64,000 nt of DNA from an uncultured Gammaproteobacteria bacterium (GCA_965231135.1 OZ246419.1:321488-385487); one strand, 5' to 3'; positions 967-56,264 are shown, numbered from the stretch's first letter. Made by a program: numbers and translations. Notes: generated by a model not told the origin, from the sequence alone.

Positions 967-2136
967 TTACAAGAGTGGGCCCCAGTTGCTGATTGGCATA
1001 GCATTGTTACTAATAAATGCTAAAGCAAAAAGAAAAGTTGGAATAATTAAAACAAGAAATGCTATTTTAAATTCTTTAGAACTTGCGTACTTTGCAAATG
1101 CAGCATATATAAAAGGAACGATTGGCAGAGCATAACGCATTAAATCGCGATGAGCGACAAATAAAAGAGTTGACCCAAAAATTCCAACAAAACATGCAAG
1201 AGTCCAATCTTTTTGTTTAATCAATCGCATAAAAGCAATGCTTGCAAATAAATAAATAAATAAAATTTCTTCCAACCAAAATGTGCCTACCCAAGGGGCG
1301 CTGTAATTAAAAATCTGAAAAGGAGGAAACATCAAATGAATATTGTCACCTGAATGAAAATATGCAAAAAAATCGTTAAATTGCAATTTATAAATATAAA
1401 AAATTACCAGAAGGGTAATTGGAATTAAAATTAATGGATATTTTTTGAGGTTTAAGGACTTGATCCAAGGACCAAATTTTGTTGTTGCGAAAGATTTAAA
1501 TCTTGGAAGAAAAGTGGCTGCAAAATAGGTAACAAATAACAAAATTCCTGGAGATTTTGTCAGAGTTGCAATAATTCCCCAAATTGCAGAAGCCCAGAAT
1601 TTTTTTTGATCATAATAATAAATTGATGCAATTATTGCGCCGATAAATAATGGTTCGGGAGATCCAACAGAACGGACGATTAGCCAGCGAGCTGGAAAAA
1701 TAGAAAAAACTGCAGTGAGCCATAATGCGTCTATTTCGTTTACATAAAGTTTCATTAATTTATTGAAAAAATAGAGAGCAATTAAAGAAGTGAATAATGT
1801 AATTGCGAGCATTGAATAAGGGAAATTTTTTGTAACTAATCCCAAACCTCTAATCAATAAAGGAAAAAGCGGAAAATGGGCTGCATAATATTGAACTGGC
1901 AAAGGAAACTCAAAATTGTTTTTAATTTGATTTGTGTTGTATAAAGTTTTTGCTACAACTAAATAAAGAGGGCCATCGTAGTTTGCAACTATTGTTTCAA
2001 GCCCGTTTTGAGGAAGTGGAATGTTATCTATTTGCGGAACTTTGAAATAAAAAATACCCCAAATGATTAATGGAGGAATAAGAGTTAGGAGAATAAGCGG
2101 GAAGATGTTTTTGATAGTTTTCATTGATATAATCAT
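967..2136 (-). CDS. polytopic membrane protein, GT-C-like, PIG-V/Mannos_trans_2-like (paralog of 41731-42891)
   Basis: 389 aa with many hydrophobic helices. The loop YLVVAKTLYN...FPLFPLLIRGL parallels DGEHYLSIAQNGYQPLEYFFFPLFPLLIRFL in ORF 41731-42891. The D-x-E-H-Y-L-x-I-A-x-x-G-Y...FFPLFP pattern is what I recall for GPI-mannosyltransferase-2-like (PF04188) proteins. Confidence 0.5.
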   Translation of the reverse strand: MIISMKTIKNIFPLILLTLIPPLIIWGIFYFKVPQIDNIPLPQNGLETIVANYDGPLYLVVAKTLYNTNQIKNNFEFPLPVQYYAAHFPLFPLLIRGLGLVTKNFPYSMLAITLFTSLIALYFFNKLMKLYVNEIDALWLTAVFSIFPARWLIVRSVGSPEPLFIGAIIASIYYYDQKKFWASAIWGIIATLTKSPGILLFVTYFAATFLPRFKSFATTKFGPWIKSLNLKKYPLILIPITLLVIFYIYKLQFNDFFAYFHSGDNIHLMFPPFQIFNYSAPWVGTFWLEEILFIYLFASIAFMRLIKQKDWTLACFVGIFGSTLLFVAHRDLMRYALPIVPFIYAAFAKYASSKEFKIAFLVLIIPTFLFALAFISNNAMPISNWGPLL

Positions 2137-31196: not shown

Positions 31197-32798
31197 ATGT
31201 GGAAATGGTTTTTAGTTGTAATATTTTTATTGGGATTTTTGTTTCGCGTTATTGGGATTTCTAATCACCCTGCTGGGTTTACTCCTGATGAGGCTTCTTT
31301 TGGATATGATGCCTATTCAATTTTAAAAACTGGTAAAGATCAGTGGGGGAATACTTTACCTTTGGTTTTTAAGTCTTTTGGAGACGACAAATTACCAGCT
31401 TATGTTTATTTAACAATTCCAAGTGTTGCAGTTTTTGGCCTTAATGAGTTTGCTGTCAGGCTTCCAAATGCGATTTTGGGAACGCTAGCAATCCTTGTTG
31501 TTTATTTACTTGTTGAAGAAATTTTTAAAGATAAAAGATTATCATTGCTTTCTGCTCTTTTATTTGCAATATCTCCGTGGAGTATTATGCTCTCGCGAGG
31601 TGCTTTTGAAGCAAATTTGACAACGTTTTTTCTGCCACTTGGAATTTTGTTTTTCTTAAAATCTTTAAAGAATAGACGATATTTGTTATTATCGTTTTTA
31701 GTTTTTTTAGTTAATATTTTTACTTATCATACTGCTAGAATTTTAACTCCATTAATATTTTTCTCCTTACTTTTTATTTATAAAAACGAATTAAAAGACA
31801 AAAAGATATTCAATATTAGCTTAGTTTTGTCTAATATAGTTTTATTTGTTGCTGCGGCTGGTTTTTTAATTGGTGGAAGTAGAGTTGCGAGTTCTTCAAT
31901 TGCGGATATTAATTTTGCAGATGATAGATATTTTGCTCAAGTTGTTGGAGAACCATCTATAATTTCAAAAGTTTTTTACAATAAACCGATTTATGTTTCT
32001 ATCCAATTTGTAAAAAATTATTTATCTTATTTTTCACCACAATTTTTATTTACAAATGGGCCTGCGGAAGGAACATATGGTATGGTTCCTGGAATTGGGG
32101 TTTTGTATTTTGTAGAAGTATTATTTTTAACTGGATTTGTTTGGAGCTTTTTCAAAGAAGGGCAGAAAAAGGAAATTTTATTTTTATTATTTTGGATTTT
32201 AATATCTCCAATTCCAGCTGCATTAACTAAAGGTCCTGGATATGCGGCAAATAGATCTGAATTTGTAATGCCGGCCATCCAGATAGTTTTAGCAATTGGT
32301 GGCTTTTATATTTATGAAAATTTGAAGAATAAAAAATGGAAAAATTATTTTATTTATGGAATGACTATTTTGTTTTTGATTAACTTTATTTATGTGTTTG
32401 AAAAATATTGGATTGGACAAACTGTCAATCAGGCATCTGACATGATTTATGGTACATCGCAAATTGTAAACAATTTGAAAAGTACAAACGCAAAACAAAT
32501 AATGGTTGCAAAGGATATTTCTGAACCGCAAATTTACTTTGCGTTTTATACAAAAATGGACCCAAGGATTTACCAACAGTTTTCTAAGAATTGGCAATTA
32601 ATTAATGGCTGGGTGGACCAACAAGGAAGTTACAAATTGGCAAATTATACTTTTAGAGATATTAATTATAATGTTGATAAAAATTTACAAAATACAATTT
32701 TGATTGGCAAACCAAATGACTTTCCAGCTGACAGTAAACCAACTTTGCAAATAAATTATCCAAATTTAAAACCAGCATATTATATTTTTAATGAATAA
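31197..32798 (+). CDS. ArnT/PMT-like GT-C membrane glycosyltransferase, paralog family A
   Basis: 533 aa. PDEASFGYDAYSILKTGKDQWGNTLPL...RLPNAILG. Confidence 0.75.
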   Translation: MWKWFLVVIFLLGFLFRVIGISNHPAGFTPDEASFGYDAYSILKTGKDQWGNTLPLVFKSFGDDKLPAYVYLTIPSVAVFGLNEFAVRLPNAILGTLAILVVYLLVEEIFKDKRLSLLSALLFAISPWSIMLSRGAFEANLTTFFLPLGILFFLKSLKNRRYLLLSFLVFLVNIFTYHTARILTPLIFFSLLFIYKNELKDKKIFNISLVLSNIVLFVAAAGFLIGGSRVASSSIADINFADDRYFAQVVGEPSIISKVFYNKPIYVSIQFVKNYLSYFSPQFLFTNGPAEGTYGMVPGIGVLYFVEVLFLTGFVWSFFKEGQKKEILFLLFWILISPIPAALTKGPGYAANRSEFVMPAIQIVLAIGGFYIYENLKNKKWKNYFIYGMTILFLINFIYVFEKYWIGQTVNQASDMIYGTSQIVNNLKSTNAKQIMVAKDISEPQIYFAFYTKMDPRIYQQFSKNWQLINGWVDQQGSYKLANYTFRDINYNVDKNLQNTILIGKPNDFPADSKPTLQINYPNLKPAYYIFNE

Positions 32799-34314
32799 AC
32801 TTCTAAAGAGAAATTCTATTATAATTCTACTTCTTATAATCTTATTTATTCCAACTTTTTATCAAATGCTTCGTTTCGGAATGTTTTCGACCCAGGATTT
32901 TCATATTTTTAGACTTATAGAATTTGATAAATGCATACAATCTTTGCAAATTCCTTGCAGATGGGCACCTGATAGTGGGGCTGGATTTGGAGAACCGCTG
33001 TTTAATTTTTATGGACAATTTGTATATGTGGCAGGAGAGATTATACATAAACTGACATTTTCGTTTATAGATTCAATAAAAATTACTTTCATTTTGTCAT
33101 TAGTTCTCTCTGGAATTGGAATGTTTTTTTTAGCCAAAAAAATTTGGGGAAATAATTTGTCAGCATTAGTTTCTTCAATAATATATCTATATGCTCCTTA
33201 TCGAGCAGTTGATGTTTGGGTGCGAGGGGCGCTTCCTGAAGCTTTTGCCTTTGTATTTTTCCCTCTTATTATTTTGGAAATCGAAAATTATTTAGAAAAA
33301 AATAGAACAAAAGATTTGTTAATTTTTAGTTTATTGTTTTCATTTTTAATTATTACTCATAATTTATCAGTAATTTTATTTGCACCATTTTTGATTGTTT
33401 GGATAATATTTAGATTTTTGCAAATTAGAAAGATTAAACCATTTATTTATTTGTTTATTGCTGGAATTTTTAGTGGAATTTTATCAGCATTTTATTTGTT
33501 ACCGGTTGCGACTGAAAGTAAGTTTATAAATCTTAATGCAACAACTACCGGAATTTATGATTGGAGAGCAAATTTTGTCACGATCTATCAATTGTTTATT
33601 TCTAGATTTTGGGGATATGGAGGGTCTACCTGGGGACCAAACGACGGACTTTCATTGTCTGTTGGACAAATACAATGGATTGTACCAGCAATTACTGGAG
33701 TAATTATCTTAATAAAACAAAAAACAAAGTTTACAAAAGATAATTTAGTTTTTACTGTTTTGGTTTTAATAGGAATTTTTGCATTATTTATGACACATAA
33801 TAAATCGACCTTTATCTGGAACATTTTACCGTTTATGAAATATATTCAGTTTCCTTGGAGATTCTTGTCTACAGCAACTTTTTCATTTGCACTTGCGAGC
33901 GGCTTAATAATTAAGCAATTTGAAATTGTAAGGTTACAATTTTTGTCTGTGATTATTGTCGTAGTAGTAACAATTTTATTGAATTTTAGTTTTTTTAAAC
34001 CTGATATTTGGTACTCTAAAGGAGATAGTTATTATTTGACTGGATCTTTTTGGAATGAAGAACAGTTTTCTTCACTTCCTGATTATTGGCCTAATTTTGG
34101 ACATAAGTTTCCTGATAAAATCTCTGATGGAAAGTATATTAATTACTTTCCAGGTTGGAATTATAAACCTGACAAGAATGGGCTTATTTCATCAGAAGGA
34201 GCAGTATTTGGTAATACATCAACGAGAACGATTGGAAATTATACAAGTTTATTTGCAATTTTGGTTTGGATAATTTTATTTGTAAAATTTAAATATGTTA
34301 GCAAAGATTCTTAA
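32791..34314 (+). CDS. large polytopic membrane protein, putative GT-C-like, paralog family C
   Basis: 507 aa. QIPCRWAPDSGAGFGEPLFNFYGQFVY loop, homologous to ORF 12517-14271. Confidence 0.6.
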   Translation: MNKLLKRNSIIILLLIILFIPTFYQMLRFGMFSTQDFHIFRLIEFDKCIQSLQIPCRWAPDSGAGFGEPLFNFYGQFVYVAGEIIHKLTFSFIDSIKITFILSLVLSGIGMFFLAKKIWGNNLSALVSSIIYLYAPYRAVDVWVRGALPEAFAFVFFPLIILEIENYLEKNRTKDLLIFSLLFSFLIITHNLSVILFAPFLIVWIIFRFLQIRKIKPFIYLFIAGIFSGILSAFYLLPVATESKFINLNATTTGIYDWRANFVTIYQLFISRFWGYGGSTWGPNDGLSLSVGQIQWIVPAITGVIILIKQKTKFTKDNLVFTVLVLIGIFALFMTHNKSTFIWNILPFMKYIQFPWRFLSTATFSFALASGLIIKQFEIVRLQFLSVIIVVVVTILLNFSFFKPDIWYSKGDSYYLTGSFWNEEQFSSLPDYWPNFGHKFPDKISDGKYINYFPGWNYKPDKNGLISSEGAVFGNTSTRTIGNYTSLFAILVWIILFVKFKYVSKDS

Positions 34315-40758: not shown

Positions 40759-41768
40759 GGGTAGCGATTGACAGTGGACCACTAACTGGAGGAGATGCAA
40801 TTCGAGGAATTGGATTTCATACAAAAGAATTATTAAAGGAATTGGAAAAATTACAGAACAAAGATTTTCAAATTGAAGCGGTGGATTTTAAAAATGCAGA
40901 TTTAAGTAAATATGATGTTATTCATTACCCATATTTTATTCCACATGCTTTGACACTTCCGTTTGTTAAGCCATCTAAAAAAGTTATTGTTACAATACAT
41001 GATTTAATTAGGTTAATTTATCCTGAAAACTATCCACCTGGAATTAAAGGGCAACTAAAATTTTTAATTCAAAAATTTAATTTAAGAAATGTGGATTCAA
41101 TAATTACAATTTCGGAAACTTCAAAAAAAGATATTGTTAGATTTTTGAATATTAATCCAGAAAAAATTTTTGTGACATATCTTGCGCCACAAACAAAAAT
41201 GAAAACTAAATCAGAACAAAAATTGAATTTACCAAAGGATTTTGTTTTATATGTAGGGGATGTTAATTTTAATAAAAATTTATTAAATCTCGCAAAGGCT
41301 ATTAAAATTGCAAAACTCAAATTAGTTATCGTTGGAAAGCAGGCTGTTAATGAGAATGTAGATGACAATATTGAAAATAAACCTTGGAGAGAATTCTTGA
41401 GATTATATAAAAATGACCCAGATATTATTCGATTAGGATTTGTTGAAGATCTGGATGATGTATTTAAAAAAGCGACGCTTTATTGTCAGCCCTCTTTTTA
41501 TGAAGGATTTGGACTTCCTATTTTGGAGGCGTTTGAGAGAAATGTTCCAGTTGTTGCGAGTAGAACTCAAGCTTTAGTTGAAGTAGGCGATAATTCATGT
41601 GTCTATTTTGACCCAAAAAATCCGGATGATATAGCAGAAAAATTGTTAGAAGTTTTTAAAGATAAAAAACTTCAGGATGAGTTGATTAAAAAAGGAAGAA
41701 ACCGACTAAAAAAGTTTAGTTGGGAAAAATGTGCAAGAGCAACTCTTTCTGTTTATGAAACGATCTGA
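40755..41768 (+). CDS. GT4 glycosyltransferase
   Basis: 337 aa. C-terminal YEGFGLPILEAFERNVPVVAS (EX7E) motif. Confidence 0.85.
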   Translation: MRVAIDSGPLTGGDAIRGIGFHTKELLKELEKLQNKDFQIEAVDFKNADLSKYDVIHYPYFIPHALTLPFVKPSKKVIVTIHDLIRLIYPENYPPGIKGQLKFLIQKFNLRNVDSIITISETSKKDIVRFLNINPEKIFVTYLAPQTKMKTKSEQKLNLPKDFVLYVGDVNFNKNLLNLAKAIKIAKLKLVIVGKQAVNENVDDNIENKPWREFLRLYKNDPDIIRLGFVEDLDDVFKKATLYCQPSFYEGFGLPILEAFERNVPVVASRTQALVEVGDNSCVYFDPKNPDDIAEKLLEVFKDKKLQDELIKKGRNRLKKFSWEKCARATLSVYETI

Positions 41769-42891
41769 AATATTATTTATAATTTCTTCTTTTCTGGTTT
41801 GGAGAGTTTTTATTTTAGTAGTAGCAATCTTTTCTATTAAATATCTTCCACTTTTTAGCCAAAATTATTTTGGCGGTGGATATTCTAACTATATTTCCAA
41901 TCCAATTTTCTGGGGTCATGGAAATTTTGATGGCGAACATTATTTATCAATTGCTCAAAACGGTTATCAACCTCTTGAATACTTTTTCTTTCCTCTTTTT
42001 CCGTTACTAATTAGATTTTTAACAATTAGTAAGAGTTTAATTAATTTTGCTTGGACTGGAATTATAATTTCAAATTTATTTTTCTTAATTTCATTATTTT
42101 TTTTATACAAATTAGTAAAGATTGATTACTCAGATAAAATTGCAAAACCTGTAATGCTTTTGCTTTTACTTTTCCCGACATCTTTTTATTTTGGAAATAT
42201 ATATACAGAGAGCTTGTTTTTTTTGCTTGCTATCTTATCGTTTTATTTTGCGCGGAAGAAAAATTATTTAGTTGCAGCTTTCTTTGTAGCATTAGCGTCA
42301 GCAACAAGAGTTATTGGTATTTTTCTACTTCCAGTTATTTTTGTCGAATGGTTTTTTGAAAGAAGACACAATTATTTAGAATTCTTAGAAATATTAATTA
42401 TTTCTCCAATTGGGCTTCTTTATTATATGTATTTTTTATTGAAGGAAACTCACGACCCACTTATCTTTGTGCATCAGGTCTCTATTTTTGGACAACAGAG
42501 ATCTTCAAGTTTGGTAATTTTGCCACAAGTAATTTATAGATATATTTTTGAAATTTTTCCACATGTTTCTTACCTTTATTTTCCAAATGTTTTTACAACT
42601 TATTTGGAATTTAGTTTTGCAATTTTATTTTTAGCACTTATTATTTTTGGAGTTTTCAAACTTAGACTTTCGTATTCGCTTTATGCTGCAGTTGCTTTTA
42701 TTATTCCAACTTTGGCTGGAAGTTTTTCTTCAATGCCAAGATATATTTTAGTTATATTTCCTGTTTTTATTCTTGTTGGAGTTTATTTAGCCAAACTTCC
42801 TAAGATTTACACATATGTTTTGTTTTTTGTTATGATTGTTTTATTTGTTATTGCAGAGTCATTTTTTTGGAGAGGATACTGGGTTTCATGA
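41731..42891 (+). CDS. polytopic membrane protein, GT-C-like, PIG-V/Mannos_trans_2-like (paralog of 967-2136)
   Basis: 386 aa. HGNFDGEHYLSIAQNGYQPLEYFFFPLFPLLIRFL. About 9 TM helices. Confidence 0.55.
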   Translation: MQEQLFLFMKRSEILFIISSFLVWRVFILVVAIFSIKYLPLFSQNYFGGGYSNYISNPIFWGHGNFDGEHYLSIAQNGYQPLEYFFFPLFPLLIRFLTISKSLINFAWTGIIISNLFFLISLFFLYKLVKIDYSDKIAKPVMLLLLLFPTSFYFGNIYTESLFFLLAILSFYFARKKNYLVAAFFVALASATRVIGIFLLPVIFVEWFFERRHNYLEFLEILIISPIGLLYYMYFLLKETHDPLIFVHQVSIFGQQRSSSLVILPQVIYRYIFEIFPHVSYLYFPNVFTTYLEFSFAILFLALIIFGVFKLRLSYSLYAAVAFIIPTLAGSFSSMPRYILVIFPVFILVGVYLAKLPKIYTYVLFFVMIVLFVIAESFFWRGYWVS

Positions 42892-44144
42892 TAAATTTTA
42901 AAAAGATTTTGAAACATCCGCTTTTTTCAGGAAGCATTTTAATGATTGGTGGAAATATGTTTGCTAATGTTATCAACTATCTTTATCAGGTAATTATGAA
43001 AAGGAATCTTGGCCTGGTAGGTTATGGTGAACTTTCGAGTATTTTTGCTATTTTTTATATAGCAACTATTGTTCCTATTTCGGCAAGCCCTTCGATAATT
43101 AAGTTTATCTCATCAAGCAAAAATCGTAGCGAGTCGGTTTTTATTTATAAAAAAATAAACGAAGTTATTGTTAAAGTGTCTCTTGTTTTGGGGATTTTTG
43201 TCTTAATTTTGTCACCTTTTTTAGCAGATTTTTTACATGTGCATTTAACAAATGTTCTGATTATCGCTCCGGTCGTCTTTTTTAGTTTAATTACTGTTAC
43301 TAATCAATCTTTATTGCAGGGAGTTTTAAATTTTTGGGGAAATGTGGGACCAAATATATTATCCAGCGCCAGCAAACTTATTTTTGGAATTATTTTTGTA
43401 TTTATTGGCTGGAAAGTTTTTGGTGCGGTTGCCGGTGTTTTTTGTGGAACACTGCTTGCTTATTTATATTCTTATTATCTGGCAAAAGGTTTTTTAAAAA
43501 ATGTTAAAGCTAAGGGCAAATTTGATTTCAAAAAATTCCTGAAATACTCTTTGCCGGTACTCATTTTTTCGTTTGCATTTACTTCTTTTTTTACAATGGA
43601 TGTTGTTTTGGTCAAACATTTTTTTAGCGATTTGGATGCCGGAATATATGCAACTCTTTCAATACTTGGAAAAATAATTTATTTTGCAGCTAGCCCAATT
43701 GCAGGTGTAATGTTTCCTATTGTTGCTGGAAAACATTCAAAAGGAGAACGATATTTTGAATTACTTTTGATTTCGCTTTTGATCACAATTTTTATGTCAT
43801 TAGGAATCGTTGCTGTATATGCGCTTTTCCCACATTTCATAATTGGGTTTTTTGGAAGTGGTAGTAATCTGATTCCAGTTTATGATTTAATCTGGATGGG
43901 ACTTTTTATATGTTTTTATACAGTTTCTTTTTTTATGATGAATTTTTTTCTTTCGATTGATAAAACAAAACTGGTTATTTTGCCGTTAGTTTTTGCAACA
44001 TTGCAAATCGTTTTAATTTGCATGTTTCATTCAAGTTTACTAACTGTGATTCAGATTTCATTTTCGCTAATGTTAGTTATGTTTTTGATTTTATTTTCTT
44101 ATTTGGTTTACAATCGCTTTGAATATGCAAAAAAAAGAACTTAA
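42867..44144 (+). CDS. MOP-superfamily polysaccharide biosynthesis protein / Wzx-like flippase
   Basis: 425 aa with about 12 TM helices. Has a Polysacc_synt-like N-terminus (LFSGSILMIGGNMFANVINYLYQVIMKRNLG). Confidence 0.7.
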   Translation: MERILGFMINFKKILKHPLFSGSILMIGGNMFANVINYLYQVIMKRNLGLVGYGELSSIFAIFYIATIVPISASPSIIKFISSSKNRSESVFIYKKINEVIVKVSLVLGIFVLILSPFLADFLHVHLTNVLIIAPVVFFSLITVTNQSLLQGVLNFWGNVGPNILSSASKLIFGIIFVFIGWKVFGAVAGVFCGTLLAYLYSYYLAKGFLKNVKAKGKFDFKKFLKYSLPVLIFSFAFTSFFTMDVVLVKHFFSDLDAGIYATLSILGKIIYFAASPIAGVMFPIVAGKHSKGERYFELLLISLLITIFMSLGIVAVYALFPHFIIGFFGSGSNLIPVYDLIWMGLFICFYTVSFFMMNFFLSIDKTKLVILPLVFATLQIVLICMFHSSLLTVIQISFSLMLVMFLILFSYLVYNRFEYAKKRT

Positions 44145-44898
44145 TTTTTTATCGCTTGTGGTACCTGCTTATAAACAGGAAAAAACAATAAAAGATGATC
44201 TTGAAAATATAGATAAAACTTTGAATGATGGCCTTCCTGTTAATTTTGATTATGAGATTATTTGTGTGGTCGACGGGTTTTTAGATAAAACTTATGAAAA
44301 CGCTAAAAAGGTTAAATCAAAAAAAATTAAGGTTTTAGGCTATGAAAAAAATCAAGGGAAGGGCCATGCTGTGCGAATGGGAATGGGAATGGCGAAAGGT
44401 GATTTGATTTCATTTTTGGATGCCGGGCGAGACATTTCACCAAAGGGAATAATGATGCTTATTTCACACATGGAATGGTATTCTGCTGATATTATTGTTG
44501 GCAGCAAAAGACATCCTGTTTCGATGGTTAATTATCCATTTGTAAGAAGAATTTTAAGCGTTGGGTATCATGGTGGAGTTAAGATTTTATTTGGTCTTCC
44601 GCTTACAGATACACAATCCGGTTTAAAAATATTTAAGAAAGATGTTGTTGATGCAATTTTGCCGAGGCTTTTGGTGAAGCGCTATGCAATGGATATTGAG
44701 ATGCTTGCTGTCGCCAAATATTTAGGGTTTGATAGGATTTATGAAGCACCAATAGAAGTAAAATTTGACAAAAAGACAAGCAACGTGAAATGGACAACTG
44801 TTTTTAAGATGTTGCAAGATACTGCTGCGGTTTTTTATAGACTCAAAATTCTTCATTATTACGATGATGCAAACTGGAAAAATTGGATTAGCAACTAA
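44119..44898 (+). CDS. GT2 glycosyltransferase, Dpm1-like polyprenol-phosphate sugar synthase (soluble type)
   Basis: 259 aa. LSLVVPAYKQE, IICVVDG, FLDAGRD (DxD position) and TQSGLKIF motifs. No TM helix. Confidence 0.75.
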   Translation: MNMQKKELNFLSLVVPAYKQEKTIKDDLENIDKTLNDGLPVNFDYEIICVVDGFLDKTYENAKKVKSKKIKVLGYEKNQGKGHAVRMGMGMAKGDLISFLDAGRDISPKGIMMLISHMEWYSADIIVGSKRHPVSMVNYPFVRRILSVGYHGGVKILFGLPLTDTQSGLKIFKKDVVDAILPRLLVKRYAMDIEMLAVAKYLGFDRIYEAPIEVKFDKKTSNVKWTTVFKMLQDTAAVFYRLKILHYYDDANWKNWISN

Positions 44899-45752
44899 GA
44901 ATTCACAATATTTTTTATACTTTTGACAATTTTTGCGTGGGCTTCAATTAATTTTGAGGGTGTTGCAATGATACCTTTTTTTCCTAAAACTTTCATAATG
45001 CTATCTGCAGGAATTTCTGTTACCACTGGAATTTTTGTTTCTGATGTTTTCTCTAGTGTGGCTATATATTTGAGAATGGTTACAATATTTGTTTTATTAT
45101 CACCAGTATATAAATCTATTAATTCTGCCATTGAATCAAAAGCACCTTCAAAGTCTGATCTGCCCACTCCGAGGTGAATTTCATCTGTATATGGAAGTAA
45201 GGTGTCAATTATAGCTTTCCAGCCTTCCTGAGCGTGCGAACCGTTTTTAACTGAGAATCTTCTGATATTAAACAAATCTAAACAGATTTTATATCCTTCG
45301 GTTTTGCTTTTTCTAAAAAGGCAGAGATATTTTGTGTATTCCAAACCTGCATCAAGTCGGTATTGGGTTGAATAATTTTATTTTTGATATTATCGAATGC
45401 TAATGTTTTAGTCTCGGGGTAAACGATGGCTGGCATATTTGGTTTCATTTTTTGTAAAATTACAATGTCTTGAAGAGAATGATTGATCTCTCATTCCCAG
45501 AACACTGGGAAATTTTCCATTTCCCCAAGTTTGATGAGCTGAGTCTATATTGGTTATTTCTGTTGCATTGTTAAAGCGAAGTTGCCAACTTGGAATTTGG
45601 AATGCAAAATATTCGAGACGATCATAACCGGCGTCTATTGCAACTTTCGCATGAAGTTGGATTGGCCACGATGAGCCAAATAATCCCATGACAGCTGAAG
45701 GCTCTATTTGGACACTGTTTGTCATTTGATATCTAATTTTGCGTTCCATCAT
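44895..45752 (-). pseudogene. frameshift-split xylose-isomerase-like TIM-barrel sugar-phosphate isomerase/epimerase
   Basis: Two adjacent minus-strand ORFs (45408-45752 and 44895-45344) together span about 286 codons. The upstream piece has VAIDAGYDRLEYF...ITNIDSAH, then degenerates into non-protein-like sequence. The downstream piece has KICLDLFN...EIHLGVGRSDFEGAFDSMAELIDLYTGD, like the HxxD...idf...L...gYdG C-terminal half of AP_endonuc_2 proteins. Confidence 0.4.
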
Positions 45753-47465: not shown

Positions 47466-48210
47466 TTGCTACGACTAGATAATCAAGCGGAAAGTAATTT
47501 GGAAAATTTAAATTAATGTTTTTGGAAACTGAAAATAAAATATTTGTGAAAATTACAATTTCTGGAGTGATTAATAAAAGAAAAATTAAATAGATTGTCA
47601 ATAAAATATTTTTTTTAGATTTTAGAATATCGAAAATTCTTTTTACTAAAAAAGCATTTAGTGATTGAAACCAAAACCCTAGAAAATTTCCATTTGCTTT
47701 TATTTTTTTAATTTTAAATTTATTATTTTTTAGTAAAAGTTTTAGCTCTGATTCACTAAATCGATATCGATCATACGGAACATCATGAAGAGGATACATA
47801 AAAGGTATAGTGAGAATCAGGATTCCGTTTTGTTTTAAAATTCTATTAATTTCAGAGAAAGTTTTTGATGGATTTTCTAGGTATTCAAAAACTTCAAGGC
47901 AAATGGCGATGTCGAAAGATTTGTTTGGAACGGGAATCTCTTTTGAAATATCGGCCAGGATGTCTGGCTTGTTTTGTGGATTGTATAGCAATGAAACTTT
48001 TGGATGATCGACGCCTATATACTTTTTTAGTTTTGTTTGAAGAATCTCACGGTATTCCATTCTGCCACATCCAAGATCGATTAATTTTTTATTTTTAGAG
48101 TATTTTAGTATTTCTACTAGTGCTTCTCTTGTATACGAAAGCATTATAAATTGGGGATGAAGAATTGTGTTTCCAAATTGGTCTGTAAATTTATTCCAGA
48201 AATTTTTCAT
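47455..48210 (-). CDS. class I SAM-dependent methyltransferase
   Basis: 251 aa. Motif I LIDLGCGRMEY. Motif II-like DIAICLEVFEYL is present. The NGILILT motif is present. Confidence 0.75.
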   Translation of the reverse strand: MKNFWNKFTDQFGNTILHPQFIMLSYTREALVEILKYSKNKKLIDLGCGRMEYREILQTKLKKYIGVDHPKVSLLYNPQNKPDILADISKEIPVPNKSFDIAICLEVFEYLENPSKTFSEINRILKQNGILILTIPFMYPLHDVPYDRYRFSESELKLLLKNNKFKIKKIKANGNFLGFWFQSLNAFLVKRIFDILKSKKNILLTIYLIFLLLITPEIVIFTNILFSVSKNINLNFPNYFPLDYLVVATKY

Positions 48211-48971
48211 TTATAAGACCTGGATATTTGTTCCATTGTTAGAATTTGTATTTTTTTTTCGTTTCTTTTTTTGTTTGCATATTTTAATATTTTTTCCAAC
48301 TCGTTAAGTAAATTTTCGCTGTCGTCTACTAGGTCTATTGGATGAAACCATATATGAAAAATTTCATGATTTTTAATTGCTTTGTTAATGCCTAACACAG
48401 ATTTTATATAACGAAGATTTTTAAAAATTATAAATTTTCGTATTCCTCTCGCTGAAACAAAGTACATTGATGATGGAATTTCAATAAGGTTAGAATTTTT
48501 TTTGGGATTTTGAGTTGGTGGAATTCTGGGAAGAATTAATTCAAATTCTGATTTGTCTTTACCTCTAAAGTCTATAAAATTGTGCTTTTTCAATAAACTT
48601 AGATATTTTATTTTATTTCTAGGGTAAACGAATGATTTTGCTTTATTTTTTTTGATTTCTTGATTTGCTTTTTTTGATGGAATTAAATTAAATATTTCGT
48701 GAGAATATGAATGGCTTCCCAACTCGTGAATCTTTTCTTTTTTGATCCAGGAAATAATATCTTTTCCTGACCAAAGAGGGTCATTACCTTCGTAAAGTTT
48801 ACCCACGATTGCCCAAGTTACTGAAATATTGTATTTATTGAAAAGTTTAAGTAGTTTTTTTATAACTTCTCTTTCCTTTTTTACTTTTTTGGTAAATTTT
48901 TGAATATCTAAATCTTTTCTTCCCCACAGAAGTTCTGTGTCGATTGAAATACAAAATGTTCCTTTTGTCAT
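48207..48971 (-). CDS. polysaccharide deacetylase-like (CE4-related) protein
   Basis: 254 aa. N-terminal FCISIDTELLWG...NISVTWAIVGKLYEG resembles the DTE-type polysaccharide deacetylase subfamily. HSYSHE is present. Confidence 0.5.
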   Translation of the reverse strand: MTKGTFCISIDTELLWGRKDLDIQKFTKKVKKEREVIKKLLKLFNKYNISVTWAIVGKLYEGNDPLWSGKDIISWIKKEKIHELGSHSYSHEIFNLIPSKKANQEIKKNKAKSFVYPRNKIKYLSLLKKHNFIDFRGKDKSEFELILPRIPPTQNPKKNSNLIEIPSSMYFVSARGIRKFIIFKNLRYIKSVLGINKAIKNHEIFHIWFHPIDLVDDSENLLNELEKILKYANKKRNEKKIQILTMEQISRSYK

Positions 48972-48998: not shown

Positions 48999-50150
48999 AT
49001 GCGAATTGGAATTTTAACTCACAATTATCCGAGAAATTCTAGAGAACAAATTGGTGCAGAGGTTTTTGTTTACAGTTTTGCGAGACTCCTAAAAAAAGAG
49101 GGGCATGAAGTATTTGTATTTTGTCCTAGTTATTCAGGAAAAAAAGAGAAGTATAAGGATGTACCAGTGACATGGTTTTACTGGCATGATGACAACAAGA
49201 AAATGGGAGATCTTTCCTTAGCTAATATTTCTTCTCTGTTTTGGATTTCTATCATGGTACTAAAGGGTGGTTTTGAAGTTTTAAAGTTTATACAAACAAA
49301 TGATATTGATGTGATTATATCAATGTGGGCTTTTCCGGCTGGATTCTGGGCCATGATTGGAAAATTTTTTGCTGGTAAACCTTCTGTTATTATATCAATG
49401 GGTTCTGATATTTTTGTTTATCCAAAAATATTGCCAATAAAATGGTTAACGGGGTTTATTTTAATGATGGGTGATTTGGTTTATGGCAATGGTTATAAAA
49501 TTTGTAGAAGGATTAAGGAAATATCGGGAAGGAAGGCTTTGTTCTTTCCGATAACTGCTTCAAATTTGCCATTTAAATATGCAATGAAAATCAAAATGGA
49601 TACAAAAAAATTCAACTTTATATATGTGGGAAGACTTGAGCCGGTTAAAGGACCTGATGTTTTGTTTGAAGCCACGAAAAAATTAAGAAGAAAGGTCGAT
49701 AACTTTGTTGTTTATCTGGCAGGACCTGGAACAATGTTTGAGGACTTAAAAGTTAAAGTTAAGAAAGATAGACTAGATGAGAACTTTAAGCTTCTAGGAC
49801 CGGTTTATGATAGAAAAAAAGTTGCCGGACTGTTTTTGCAGGCAGACAGTTTGGTTATGGCCTCAAGAAGCGAAAGTACCCCCTTCACTGTGATTGAGGC
49901 AATTAATGCGAAATTGCCAATTGTTGTTACAGATGTAGGGGATATGGGGAAAATTGCCAGTGATTTTAAGATTGGTTTTGTTGCACCTGCAGAAGATGCA
50001 ACTGCTTTGGCTGACGAAATGTTTAAAATAATAAAAAAAGGGAAAGGTTTCAAGAAAAAAATTGCCAAAAACTTCAAAAAACCCAAAGAAATTTATGATA
50101 CTTATAAATCTACAAAAAAAATGTTATTAAAAGTAGAAGAATTGTTATGA
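48999..50150 (+). CDS. GT4 glycosyltransferase
   Basis: 383 aa. RSESTPFTVIEAINAKLPIVVTDVGDMG (EX7E). Confidence 0.8.
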   Translation: MRIGILTHNYPRNSREQIGAEVFVYSFARLLKKEGHEVFVFCPSYSGKKEKYKDVPVTWFYWHDDNKKMGDLSLANISSLFWISIMVLKGGFEVLKFIQTNDIDVIISMWAFPAGFWAMIGKFFAGKPSVIISMGSDIFVYPKILPIKWLTGFILMMGDLVYGNGYKICRRIKEISGRKALFFPITASNLPFKYAMKIKMDTKKFNFIYVGRLEPVKGPDVLFEATKKLRRKVDNFVVYLAGPGTMFEDLKVKVKKDRLDENFKLLGPVYDRKKVAGLFLQADSLVMASRSESTPFTVIEAINAKLPIVVTDVGDMGKIASDFKIGFVAPAEDATALADEMFKIIKKGKGFKKKIAKNFKKPKEIYDTYKSTKKMLLKVEELL

Positions 50151-52216
50151 AAAAAATTGCTTTTATTTTTGCTTTTATTTTTTTTATTGCTGGACTTTTT
50201 ACTTTAAAAGATTACGGAATTAATTGGGATGTTATTAATCATCTTCCGCGAGGACAGGCATATTTAAATTATTATTTGACAGGTAAAAAAGATTATTCTA
50301 ATTTGCAGGATTTTTTTTCTGGTTGGCAAACATTGGGCCAATGGTATTATCAAAACCCTACAAGCCTTTTTATTAATGCAGATATACCTTTGTCTAAAGT
50401 CCCAACCCGAAGTCTTTATCAAAATAGTGATCTTAACTTTAGCTATTTTATGTCGAATGATGGATATGGTCATCCGCCGCTTTCGGATATATTGTCGTCT
50501 TTATTTAATGTAGTTTTATTTCAGAAACTAAGAATTATTGATGATATTGACGCTTATCATGTTTATGGAGTTTTGCTTGCGAGTGTTTTGGTTGGGCTGA
50601 TATTTTATTGGGTCTCTAGAGTTTACGGAAAAATTGCTGGTTCGTTAGCAAGTTTGTCACTTGCATCTTACCCGCTTTTTTGGAGTGAAATGCATTTTAA
50701 TACGGAAAAAGATGTGCCGGAGACTGTTTATTGGAGTATTTTTATTTTTTTTGTATGGAAGGGGATTGTAACAAAAAAAGCGAAGTGGATATTTGTTTCT
50801 GGAATATTTTTTGGTTTAGCCCTTGGCACAAAATTTAATATTTTGTTTGCAGTTTTTGTAATAGTTCCTTGGACTTTATCGTATTTTATTTTTGAAAAGC
50901 AAAAGCTATTATCAAAAATTAATTTTAAGATTTTGTTTGCCGCAATTTTTGCATTTGCGATTGGCATTTTAATCTTTGTTGTTTTTTGGCCTTATCTTTG
51001 GCCGGATCCGATTGGAAGAGTGCAAAATGTAATTCAATTTTATAAAGATATTGGAATTGCAACTGGACCTGTTGATCCAAGATTTTCTGGTCCACTTGGA
51101 ATAAATTATTATCCTGTTTTTTGGATAATAACTACCACACCGCCGATTGTTTTAATTTTTTCTGGTGCTGGAGTTATTTTTGGAATTATAAATTTTAAAA
51201 AACATAAAGAGATTTCTATTTTATTTTTGTTGTGGTTTTTAGTTCCTATACTTAGAGTTACGTGGCATGGGGCAAATATTTATGGCGGAATAAGACAGTT
51301 GATGGAATATGTGCCTGCACTTTGTGCATTTGCTGGGATTGGCGGAAGTTATTTGTTTAATAAATTAAGAAGGTTTAGAAATAATCTTTTTGTAAAGAGT
51401 GTGTTTGTGGCGGTTGTATTTTTAGTTTTGCTTGTTCCTATTATCGGGACACATCCTGTTGAGGATGTGTATTTTAATTTTCTTGTTGGCGGACTTGCTG
51501 GGGCAAAGGCGATGGATATTCCAGCATGGGGAAACAGTTTTGGTTCGGCATATAGGCAGGCAATTGACTGGATTGATGTAAATGTGCCAAAAAACTCCAA
51601 ACTGGTTTATGCGTATGAACTTATTCCTAATGTTCCAAGAATTTGGATAAGACAAGATATTGATCTTGATAACGCGAATCGTAGCGGATATTTGCGCAAC
51701 GGAGAGTATGCAATGACATTAAATTACGAAGGAACCGACACAAGAAGTTATTACGATATGTATTTGACTACTTTTCTAAACCCAGTGTATCAGGAAAAAA
51801 TTGATGGTGTGCCTGTTGTGACTGTTTGGAAAAATGACGATGCACATTTAAAGAATCCATGGATTGAGAAAAAAGTTCCAAAGGTTAATGTGATAAAAAC
51901 AGAAAATAGTTTGAAGTTTGATTTGAATGATGAATATAAAATCTCAAGACTTGATATGACATATAATCAAAATAAATGCAGTAATTTGACGAGTGGATAT
52001 TTTGAAATTTCAAACGATAATGTTAGTTGGACGAGATTGCCTGGAGTTTTACCAGATGATTGGGCAATATCAGTTTTGAAACAACAACCAGACAAAGGGA
52101 AGTTTACAGAACCATTTGTGGGGCAAAATGTAAGATTTATAAAATTTAATATGTTGCCTGAAAATACTTGTTTATTGAAAAATTATAGAAGTTTTAGTTT
52201 TTATTACTTACAATAA
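50147..52216 (+). CDS. GT-C-like membrane glycosyltransferase with C-terminal discoidin (F5/8 type C)-like carbohydrate-binding domain
   Basis: 689 aa. N-terminal TM, loop KDYGINWDVINHLPRG, about 11 TM helices. The roughly 230-aa C-terminal soluble region ends ...ISRLDMTYNQNKCSNLTSGYFEISNDNVSWTRL...VGQNVRFIKFNML, resembling discoidin-domain signatures. Confidence 0.6.
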   Translation: MKKIAFIFAFIFFIAGLFTLKDYGINWDVINHLPRGQAYLNYYLTGKKDYSNLQDFFSGWQTLGQWYYQNPTSLFINADIPLSKVPTRSLYQNSDLNFSYFMSNDGYGHPPLSDILSSLFNVVLFQKLRIIDDIDAYHVYGVLLASVLVGLIFYWVSRVYGKIAGSLASLSLASYPLFWSEMHFNTEKDVPETVYWSIFIFFVWKGIVTKKAKWIFVSGIFFGLALGTKFNILFAVFVIVPWTLSYFIFEKQKLLSKINFKILFAAIFAFAIGILIFVVFWPYLWPDPIGRVQNVIQFYKDIGIATGPVDPRFSGPLGINYYPVFWIITTTPPIVLIFSGAGVIFGIINFKKHKEISILFLLWFLVPILRVTWHGANIYGGIRQLMEYVPALCAFAGIGGSYLFNKLRRFRNNLFVKSVFVAVVFLVLLVPIIGTHPVEDVYFNFLVGGLAGAKAMDIPAWGNSFGSAYRQAIDWIDVNVPKNSKLVYAYELIPNVPRIWIRQDIDLDNANRSGYLRNGEYAMTLNYEGTDTRSYYDMYLTTFLNPVYQEKIDGVPVVTVWKNDDAHLKNPWIEKKVPKVNVIKTENSLKFDLNDEYKISRLDMTYNQNKCSNLTSGYFEISNDNVSWTRLPGVLPDDWAISVLKQQPDKGKFTEPFVGQNVRFIKFNMLPENTCLLKNYRSFSFYYLQ

Positions 52217-54983: not shown

Positions 54984-56264
54984 ATGAAAATTGGAATAAT
55001 TGGCGCTGGATTTACTGGACTTTCCGCGGGATATGAGCTTTCTAAAAAAGGACATGATGTGACGATTTTTGAGGCTAGTAAAATTCCTGGTGGACTAGCA
55101 ACTGGATTTAAAAATAAAAAATGGAAATGGGAATTAGAATCACATTACCATCATCTTTTTAAGACAGACTATGAAATACAGAGATTGGCAAAAGAAGTAG
55201 ATCATAAAATAATTTTTGTTAGACCAAAAACTTCAACTTTTTATAAAGATGTCATAATGCAAATAGATTCTCCTTTGTCTTTAATGAAGTTTAAACATCT
55301 TAGTTTACAAAGTAGAATAAGAACTGGAACTGTTTTGGCGTATTTAAAAATTACAAATAATTGGAAGCCGTTAGAGAAAATTACAGCAAAAAAATTTTTA
55401 ATTAAAACAATGGGGGAGGATTCTTGGAAAGTTTTATGGCAACCGCTTTTAGAAAAAAAATTTGGTCAATATTCCACTCAAATTCCAGCTTCTTGGTTTT
55501 GGGCTAGAGTGAAATCCCGTACAGCAGTTCTAGGTTATCCTGAGGGAGGTTTTGATAAATTTGCACAAAAAATATGTCAGGAAATTAAAAAAAATAAAGG
55601 AGAAGTTTTATTTGAGAAAAAAGTTTTAAAAATTCTTAATAAAAAGAAAAAAATTTATATAAAAATTGGAGGAGGAGAAAGATATGCATTCGATAAAGTC
55701 ATATGTACTTTGCCAACTAATTTGTTTACAAAAATAACTTCTGGCTTACCAGATAACTATTTAAGATCCGCAGCAAGATTTAGTGGAATAGGCGCGACTA
55801 ATTTAGTATTAGTTTTGAGTAAAAGTTTTTTAGATGATGGAACATATTGGTTGAATATTAATGAAGCAAAATATCCGTTTCTTGCAATTGTTGAGCATAC
55901 AAATTTTATGAATAGTAAAAATTATGGTAAAGAAAAAATTATTTATATTGGCAATTATCTTGAAAATAATAATAAATATTTTCTTATGAGTGACAAAGAG
56001 CTTTTGAAAGAATATTTACCTTATTTGAAAAAAATTAATAAACGGTTTAGTAAATCATGGATAAAACGTATATATTTAGCAAAAGCTTTTTTTGCTCAAC
56101 CGATCATTGTTAAGAATTATTCCAAAAAAGTATTACCTTTTAAGACTCCAATTAAAAATCTTTTCCTAGCAAATATTCAACAAGTTTATCCCTGGGATCG
56201 CGGAACAAATTATGCTGTAGAATTAGGAAGACGAGTTGCGAAGGAAGTTTTACTAAATGATTGA
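54984..56264 (+). CDS. FAD/NAD(P)-binding oxidoreductase (amine-oxidase / protoporphyrinogen-oxidase / phytoene-desaturase-like fold)
   Basis: 426 aa. N-terminal KIGIIGAGFTGLSAGYELSKKGHDVTIFE...PGG (GxGxxG dinucleotide-binding beta-alpha-beta). Confidence 0.65.
   Translation: MKIGIIGAGFTGLSAGYELSKKGHDVTIFEASKIPGGLATGFKNKKWKWELESHYHHLFKTDYEIQRLAKEVDHKIIFVRPKTSTFYKDVIMQIDSPLSLMKFKHLSLQSRIRTGTVLAYLKITNNWKPLEKITAKKFLIKTMGEDSWKVLWQPLLEKKFGQYSTQIPASWFWARVKSRTAVLGYPEGGFDKFAQKICQEIKKNKGEVLFEKKVLKILNKKKKIYIKIGGGERYAFDKVICTLPTNLFTKITSGLPDNYLRSAARFSGIGATNLVLVLSKSFLDDGTYWLNINEAKYPFLAIVEHTNFMNSKNYGKEKIIYIGNYLENNNKYFLMSDKELLKEYLPYLKKINKRFSKSWIKRIYLAKAFFAQPIIVKNYSKKVLPFKTPIKNLFLANIQQVYPWDRGTNYAVELGRRVAKEVLLND

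Follow-up and report, generated by a model that had tools for sequence, protein, structure and literature searches.

A GT-C membrane glycosyltransferase with a C-terminal discoidin/CBM32-like module in a Patescibacteria glycan-assembly region

A stretch of DNA of 64,000 nucleotides (nt) (GCA_965231135.1 OZ246419.1:321488-385487; hereafter the window, with all coordinates counted from its first letter) carries at 50147..52216, on the plus strand, an open reading frame (ORF) for a membrane protein of 689 amino acids, which begins with ATG and ends with a stop codon at 52214..52216. The evidence supports its assignment to the GT-C-fold enzymes of the PMT_2 (GT39/GT83-like) superfamily, and Pfam and structural modelling support a beta-sandwich of the discoidin/CBM32 fold for its C-terminal module (CBM, carbohydrate-binding module). 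The interpretation that we favour, with moderate confidence, is that the protein is an extracytoplasmic glycosyltransferase using a lipid-linked sugar, and that the sandwich at the end of its tail binds and positions the acceptor glycan. A record at NCBI that is 100% identical to the protein is named 'glycosyltransferase family 39 protein [Patescibacteria group bacterium]', and PF00754 and PF13231 are already precomputed on that record. An earlier reading made from the sequence alone (the sequence-only reading) had described the ORF as a GT-C-like enzyme with about 11 transmembrane (TM) helices, followed by some 230 soluble residues ending in a discoidin/F5_F8_type_C-like domain. This outline was borne out by a PF13231 match, fold matches, a count of 11 helices, a PF00754 match at threshold and Foldseek matches to CBM32 modules; the soluble tail, however, has 255 residues, and the discoidin-like part is only the last ~124 of them.

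Domain architecture and family of the protein

The similarity of the tail to F5/8 type C domains is beyond chance. PF00754 matches residues 587-665 (nt 51905..52141; profile positions 35-111 of 127) with 27.0 bits (E = 5.5e-6) in the whole protein and with 29.6-31.3 bits in the isolated tail, the gathering cut-off being 28.2, and a weaker match to PF22633 is concordant. When the relatives in a 30-sequence tail alignment were scanned with Pfam (E <= 0.01), PF00754 was matched independently by 13 of the 30 members and PF22633 by nine. The tail family profile retrieved the CBM32 modules 4a42 (E = 0.036) and 4txw (E = 1.3) from the PDB. Residues 566-689 are all-beta in an AlphaFold2 model of the full-length protein, which was built on 120 homologs (predicted local distance difference test, pLDDT, 94.3; predicted TM-score, pTM, 0.93). 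A tail-only model (pLDDT 86.8) gave 56 Foldseek matches in the PDB at E <= 1e-3, nearly all of them CBM32 or F5/8 type C domains; the best was 4a42 (E = 7.6e-7), and the others included 4lqr, 4lpl, the NanJ CBM32 2v72, lectinolysin, AlyQ, chitosan-binding modules and neuropilin b1b2. The full-length model retrieved the same set. The segment that had been singled out from the sequence (ISRLDMTYNQNKCSNLTSGYFEISNDNVSWTRLPGV...FVGQNVRFIKFNML) corresponds to residues 599-669, and the core motif of the sandwich is S622-x-D624-x-x-x-W628 together with F657. Ahead of the sandwich, the tail contains an alpha/beta subdomain, with an H-P-N-E-N motif at 436-440, which is the better conserved of the two halves.

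In the membrane domain, 11 TM segments are recognized by AlphaFold2 helices and hydropathy, the last of which ends near residue 434. PF13231 (PMT_2) matches residues 132-271 (E = 7.5e-11; 42.9 bits, cut-off 26.1), and the Foldseek matches of this part comprise STT3, ArnT (5f15, 5ezm), ALG9/ALG12, PglB, Emb and AftA/AftD (E = 1.8e-8 to ~5e-4). Searches of the PDB with the full-length protein, as a single sequence and as a family profile, found no GT-C chain, ArnT included, and gave only weak CBM32 matches; the GT-C relationship is therefore one of superfamily or fold, and the catalytic residues of ArnT and PMT cannot be mapped onto the protein by alignment. PF02366, the family of PMT proper, stays below its cut-off (11 bits, E = 0.31; cut-off 22.7) and W-D-V/T stands in place of the D-E motif, so that an assignment to GT39 PMT proper is not supported and 'family 39' in the NCBI name is nominal. 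Nor could it be assigned to ArnT (GT83): an NCBIfam scan of the protein and of the tail gave no match, the ArnT models included, the profile search retrieved no ArnT from the PDB, and the likeness is one of fold alone.

The invariant residues of the first extracytoplasmic loop (EL1) in the 120-sequence alignment are D28, H32, R35, G108-H-P-P111, D114, D133 and D135. D28 (codon 50228..50230) belongs to the motif N-W-D in GINWDVINH (residues 24-32), 8-10 residues past TM1, at the site that DE occupies in paralogs, and, from what is known of GT-C families, it is presumed to be the catalytic Asp; in the present family it is followed by V or T, not E. The departure of this loop from the DE consensus, to which the sequence-only reading had drawn attention, is thus real but not unique, since DE occurs in nine of the 12 other PMT_2 paralogs of the window and the remaining three also lack the E.

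As to topology, if the N-terminus is placed inside, all short inner loops carry a net positive charge over the 120 homologs (+0.97 to +2.28), and the short outer loops have net charges of -0.98 to +1.0. The arrangement of 11 TM segments with the N-terminus in and the C-terminus out thus obeys the positive-inside rule, which places both the C-terminal tail and EL1 (residues 21-135) on the outside of the cell. The number of Cys in the tail (C611 and C675 here) is exactly two in 120 of 120 homologs. From the charge statistics and this nearly invariant Cys pair, the tail is predicted to be extracytoplasmic; the location on the periplasmic side and the beta-sandwich fold are both as the sequence-only reading had expected.

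At least 120 full-length homologs exist at 49-69% identity, and a scan of species-representative genomes yielded 71 loci, essentially all of which come, by their record titles, from Microgenomates-type Patescibacteria (Woesebacteria, Daviesbacteria, Blackburnbacteria, Levybacteria, Gottesmanbacteria, Shapirobacteria and Roizmanbacteria). The loci fall into two tiers of identity, a closer one at 44-54% and a distant one at 30-41%, the latter co-occurring in some genomes. The alpha/beta subdomain is kept in all relatives, and the sandwich in 26 of 26 close and 35 of 42 distant members (61 of the 68 complete relatives). Three further distant genes have a diverged tail of ~120 residues that still contains two Cys, and four others (L065, L066, L067 and L071) end 1-41 residues past the alpha/beta subdomain and have no Cys there. 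The existence of such sandwich-less relatives indicates that the sandwich is a discrete module. C611 and C675 are conserved at 97-98% over both tiers, and the Cys pair is confined to relatives in which the alpha/beta subdomain continues into a C-terminal tail, a distribution that fits an intradomain disulfide, which is what we infer for this pair. When the tail profile was searched against 1.84 billion representative proteins, 135 clusters were found at E <= 1e-30; in the near-full-length matches (~530-930 residues), the tail is C-terminal and follows an N-terminal part of ~400-490 residues. Its retention in relatives and these 135 clusters support the view that the sandwich is a functional module under selection. 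The four proteins that end after the alpha/beta subdomain are natural sandwich-free versions and would be useful comparators for sandwich function.

The putative role of the sandwich

In the scheme that we favour, a GT2 enzyme of the ArnC/GtrB type would use a nucleotide sugar to glycosylate polyprenyl phosphate on the inner side of the membrane, the lipid-linked sugar would be flipped to the outer face, and the GT-C enzyme, with the invariant Asp28 in its first outer loop, would move the sugar to an acceptor at that face. The tail outside the cell, consisting of the alpha/beta subdomain and then the sandwich, which is probably stapled by a C611-C675 disulfide, would contribute by binding the acceptor glycan and positioning it, in the manner of the CBM-like subdomain in EmbC. 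Extracytoplasmic glycosylation by a GT2 and GT-C pair is an established scheme (PMC11127046). In EmbC, mutagenesis and ligand-binding assays have demonstrated that the C-terminal CBM-like subdomain binds acceptor arabinan (PMC3044687), and for AftD, acceptor binding by a CBM has been proposed, with glycan-array support for the whole protein (bioRxiv 10.1101/2019.12.22.885152). Given these two precedents, acceptor-glycan binding seems the most economical role for the discoidin-fold domain, and carbohydrate binding by the sandwich is suggested by the same kind of analogy.

The use of a polyprenyl-phosphate-linked donor is suggested by the adjacent gene. This gene encodes a GT2 whose closest relatives in a phmmer search of the PDB are ArnC (9hwj, E = 2e-42, residues 2-293), GtrB (5eke, 1e-29, residues 4-293) and DPMS (5mlz, 7e-20), and it presumably belongs to the polyprenyl-phosphate sugar synthase type and makes the lipid-linked donor. 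A homolog of this GT2 lies downstream and convergent in 36 of the 53 loci with enough flank (20 of 23 close and 16 of 30 distant), and no other orientation was found. The GT2 is the best-conserved neighbour (median identity 58%; at least 40% in 42 of the 71 loci).

Several points weigh against this interpretation. The closest solved relative of the sandwich, 4a42, shares only 22-25% identity with it and is CBM32-6 of CpGH89, which its authors judged to be non-functional as a CBM (PMC3313936). The first ~34 positions of the PF00754 profile are missing from the match. Within the sandwich, residues conserved at 80% or more over both tiers are confined to the core motif, F657 included, and the Cys pair; no candidate binding-site residue, and no loop residue but the Cys pair, is conserved in both tiers. 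W639 and Q647, among other putative surface residues, show conservation in the close tier only. The four relatives without a sandwich show that it is not needed for catalysis in the wider family. No solved GT-C was retrieved by sequence profile, and the putative catalytic residues are assigned by fold and position. Finally, no flippase of the GtrA or ArnE/F type was found near the gene among the ORFs scanned.

A first alternative, which we consider possible although on the unlikely side, is that the sandwich is a structural module and not a lectin, serving to cap or stabilise the alpha/beta domain or as a spacer, in the manner of CBM32-1 and CBM32-6 of CpGH89 or of the 'structural beta-sandwich' of AftD; recognition of the acceptor would then fall to the alpha/beta subdomain together with the membrane domain's outer loops. 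The reported lack of sugar binding by 4a42, which is the closest relative by structure and by sequence, the lack of loop residues conserved across tiers other than the Cys pair, and the absence of the sandwich from four relatives all argue for it, as do the stronger conservation of the alpha/beta subdomain (50-68% identity in the close loci, versus 26-46% for the sandwich) and the fact that, in AftD, one beta-sandwich is purely structural and one CBM binds weakly or not at all. It accounts less well for the retention of the sandwich in nearly all complete relatives, and, among the Foldseek neighbours listed besides 4a42, most are sugar-binding and several contain a bound ligand. In addition, a loop block of the close tier, L-P-x-D-W...G-E-Q-P (L634-W639 and G645-P648), is conserved at 90% or more, which suggests a functional surface. 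The restriction of conserved candidate surface residues to the close tier is equally compatible with a tier-specific specificity and with a structural role.

The acceptor-binding interpretation also has a stronger form, which we find rather doubtful, in which the sandwich, stapled by a disulfide, is a genuine lectin for one particular epitope of a Microgenomates surface glycan or glycoprotein. If this were so, the GT-C and its ArnC-like partner would carry out the step at which a core envelope pathway of these ultra-small bacteria acquires its specificity, the two tiers, with their different tail loops, would recognise different epitopes, and a first handle would be gained on the cell-surface chemistry of Patescibacteria, which is essentially uncharacterised.

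That the protein is instead a protein O-glycosyltransferase like PMT/GT39, with the discoidin-fold domain recognising a protein acceptor (a surface-layer protein, a pilin or another secreted protein), appears improbable. Its NCBI name and the membership of PF13231 in the PMT clan are in line with this possibility, F5/8 type C domains elsewhere bind proteins or peptides (neuropilin b1b2 with a peptide or chlorotoxin is among the Foldseek neighbours), and a small DUF5667 protein with a predicted N-terminal hydrophobic helix recurs nearby. However, PF02366 is not significant, the DE motif of PMT is not kept, no NCBIfam model matches, the neighbourhood consists mostly of GT2 and GT4 enzymes typical of polysaccharide assembly, and the best fold neighbours are glycan-binding CBM32s. 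It is highly improbable that the domain binds lipid head groups, like the C2 domains of factors V and VIII, so as to anchor the outer domain or help present the donor: the fold is common to lipid-binding F5/8 type C domains (PF00754) and the enzyme is a membrane protein that presumably uses a lipid-linked donor, but the nearest neighbours are bacterial CBM32s and not C2 domains, the domain lies at the far C-terminus, past the alpha/beta subdomain, and the conserved residues include no evident hydrophobic 'spike' motif.

Neighbouring genes and the rest of the window

The start of the gene overlaps the stop of an upstream gene for a cytoplasmic GT4 glycosyltransferase (ATGA), from which co-transcription and translational coupling of the two seem probable. 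A GT4 gene also lies upstream of the homologs in loci L001-L004, and immediately upstream in L001-L003. At the other end, the last 23 nt of the gene overlap the 3' end of the convergent GT2 gene (52194..52216), and about 15 of the 36 paired loci show an overlap or a gap of less than 80 nt. Such overlaps or short gaps leave no space for separate terminators, and antisense or transcriptional interference between the partner genes is a possibility. The GT2 and GT4 neighbours other than the convergent GT2 recur less often in related loci; of the two GT2 genes that follow it, the one for 268 residues was found in 26 and the one for 329 residues in 19 of the 71 loci (at least 40% identity), and L004 keeps the gene order.

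A polysaccharide deacetylase gene nearby recalls ArnD of the lipid A 4-amino-4-deoxy-L-arabinose (Ara4N) pathway, and an Arn pathway composed of ArnC, an ArnD-like deacetylase and an ArnT-like GT-C was therefore considered. The deacetylase is present in only 10 of the 71 loci, and the convergent GT2 scores 175 bits with the NCBIfam equivalog model of ArnC, far under its cut-off of 529, so that the pathway was rejected as a conserved trait of these loci. The DUF5667 protein was found by tblastn near homologs of the gene in 11 of the 71 loci and could be an accessory factor or an acceptor. The only flippases found in the window among the ORFs scanned are of the Wzx type and lie far from the gene, and two small ORFs (44895..45344 and 45408..45752) have no Pfam match.

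The window has a G+C content of ~30%, and nearly all of its genes are for glycan assembly: 13 of them encode PMT_2-type GT-Cs, and many others encode GT2, GT4 and methyltransferase proteins. The sequence-only reading had proposed that a built-in lectin module would permit ordered assembly by these many paralogs. This proposal did not hold, for only one of the 13 PMT_2-type GT-C genes has the module: the tail profile matches no other ORF of the window, the other PMT_2 GT-Cs are without a CBM or discoidin Pfam match, and neither BLAST nor profile searches found the protein or its tail a second time in the window. A module that exists in one of these enzymes alone cannot explain an ordered assembly by all of them.

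A second long GT-C, of 703 residues, has its last predicted TM segment ending at residue 387, followed by ~316 residues without a Pfam match, and this tail is unrelated by BLAST or profile to the one described here. Directly downstream of its gene is that of an RmlD-GT2 fusion protein. The fusion was considered as a polyprenyl-phosphate rhamnose synthase, but such a role is not supported, as its GT2 half resembles 6yv7 (E = 4e-6) and not GtrB or ArnC. Between the GT2 genes and those for a methyltransferase and the 703-residue GT-C sits an oxidoreductase of the PRK07233 type, perhaps a redox enzyme that modifies sugars or lipids; it is rarely conserved beside homologs of the present gene (2 of the 71 loci). 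The positions of these features are given in Table 1.

The genomes of Patescibacteria (the candidate phyla radiation, CPR) are tiny, yet 64 kb are devoted here almost wholly to glycan assembly. The longest contig on record for the protein cluster of the enzyme has 0.81 Mb, so that the window represents an unusually large share of a probably very small genome. The GT-C family is unusually conserved for the CPR, at ~50-70% identity across Woesebacteria, Daviesbacteria and Blackburnbacteria. The tight linkage of the gene to a presumed donor synthase and the compact soluble domain of its product offer a practical entry to the surface chemistry of these organisms, and the interest would grow should specific lectin activity toward a Patescibacteria surface glycan be demonstrated for the domain.

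Table 1. Positions of the gene, its parts and other features in the window
Feature	Coordinates	Strand	Basis or remarks
Whole gene	50147..52216	+	689-aa GT-C (PMT_2-type) glycosyltransferase with C-terminal discoidin/CBM32-fold domain
Membrane domain, aa 1-435	50147..51451	+	11 TM helices, N-terminus inside; PF13231 at aa 132-271
First extracytoplasmic loop EL1, aa 21-135	50207..50551	+	Invariant residues in 120-sequence alignment
Extracytoplasmic (predicted) alpha/beta subdomain, aa 436-565	51452..51841	+	AlphaFold2 secondary structure, conservation
Discoidin / F5-8 type C / CBM32-fold beta-sandwich (modelled), aa 566-689 (~124 aa)	51842..52213	+	Pfam, Foldseek, PDB profile
Span from C611 (51977..51979) to C675 (52169..52171)	51977..52171	+	Only two tail Cys; putative intradomain disulfide
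Upstream GT4 glycosyltransferase, cytoplasmic	48999..50150	+	Pfam PF00534, PF13692
Convergent GT2, 311 aa, ArnC/GtrB/DPMS type, 2 C-terminal TM helices	52194..53129	-	PF00535, PDB phmmer
Two GT2 genes, 268 aa and 329 aa	53176..54968	+	Pfam, NCBIfam; recur beside the GT-C/GT2 pair
Polysaccharide deacetylase	48207..48971	-	PF01522
Small DUF5667 protein, one predicted N-terminal hydrophobic helix	46923..47465	+	L001 2228..2794; L004 8154..8654
PRK07233-type FAD/NAD(P)-binding oxidoreductase	54984..56264	+	E = 1e-128
Second long GT-C, 703 aa	56975..59086	+	PF02366 and PF13231
RmlD-GT2 fusion, 627 aa	59101..60984	+	RmlD-type dTDP-4-dehydrorhamnose reductase aa 7-298; membrane-anchored GT2 aa 310-582, C-terminal TM helices
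PIG-V-like membrane protein	41731..42891		PF04188
PIG-V-like paralog	967..2136	-	BLAST-level paralog of 41731..42891
PTPS_related-type membrane protein	32791..34314		PF10131
PTPS_related-type paralog	12517..14271		Paralog of 32791..34314
Wzx-type flippases	14240..15733; 42867..44144

Comparison with known systems

A search of the literature on discoidin domains joined to GT-Cs, or on expansions of GT-Cs in the CPR, found nothing directly relevant, and the nearest comparisons are with enzymes of other bacteria. The mycobacterial arabinosyltransferases EmbC, EmbA and EmbB are, like the present protein, polytopic GT-Cs, and they use a polyprenyl-phosphate sugar, as the present enzyme probably does. 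Their extracytoplasmic C-terminal domain is likewise composed of an alpha/beta subdomain and a beta-sandwich CBM-like subdomain (PMC3044687). For the membrane part, Foldseek retrieved Emb structures among others, whereas no similarity at the sequence level was detected by a profile search of the PDB. The solved Emb chains are larger (~1,040-1,060 residues), and Emb proteins have 15 TM segments, in contrast to the 689 residues, 11 TM segments and PMT_2 type of the Patescibacteria protein. The sandwiches also differ, that of Emb resembling CBM6/CBM36 and having a Ca2+ site, and that of the present protein being of the CBM32 or F5/8 type C kind.

AftD, whose structures are also among the Foldseek matches, is another GT-C whose soluble outer part has beta-sandwich CBMs that are proposed to hold a complex glycan acceptor. 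It has three CBMs and a structural beta-sandwich, and its Ca-binding CBM1 and CBM3 have been compared with 1UYY and with 4A45, the latter a CBM32 (bioRxiv 10.1101/2019.12.22.885152). With ~1,250 residues in the solved chains, 16 TM helices, several CBMs and a bound acyl carrier protein, AftD differs from the enzyme described here, in which a single CBM32-like module is situated at the extreme C-terminus.

The pairing of a GT-C with a GT2 that makes a polyprenyl-phosphate sugar is shared with the GtrA/GtrB/Gtr(type) and ArnC/ArnE-F/ArnT systems (PMC11127046). The GT2 neighbour here is a full-length homolog of ArnC and GtrB, and the membrane part has ArnT as one of its best matches in fold; unlike those systems, the locus has no gene for a GtrA- or ArnE/F-type flippase among those found nearby. 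Gtr and ArnT enzymes are not known to carry a CBM. The CBM32s of Clostridium perfringens glycoside hydrolases (4a42, 4lpl, 4lqr and 2v72) have the same fold as the sandwich (Foldseek E = 7.6e-7 to 2e-4; TM-score ~0.45-0.55 relative to the chain of the present protein) and the motifs 'FDL...IS.DG..W...ARYI' in common with it. They are, however, appended to secreted glycoside hydrolases, whereas the module found here forms part of a membrane glycosyltransferase; it also has a Cys pair specific to its family and is without the first ~34 Pfam positions.

In short, a built-in CBM on a GT-C is already known from the mycobacterial EmbC and AftD, and the Pfam content of the protein is already on record. 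The protein is an uncharacterised, CPR-restricted member of the known design in which a GT-C is joined to a C-terminal CBM-type domain; it introduces no new principle, but it extends that design to a different GT-C lineage and to a different phylum.

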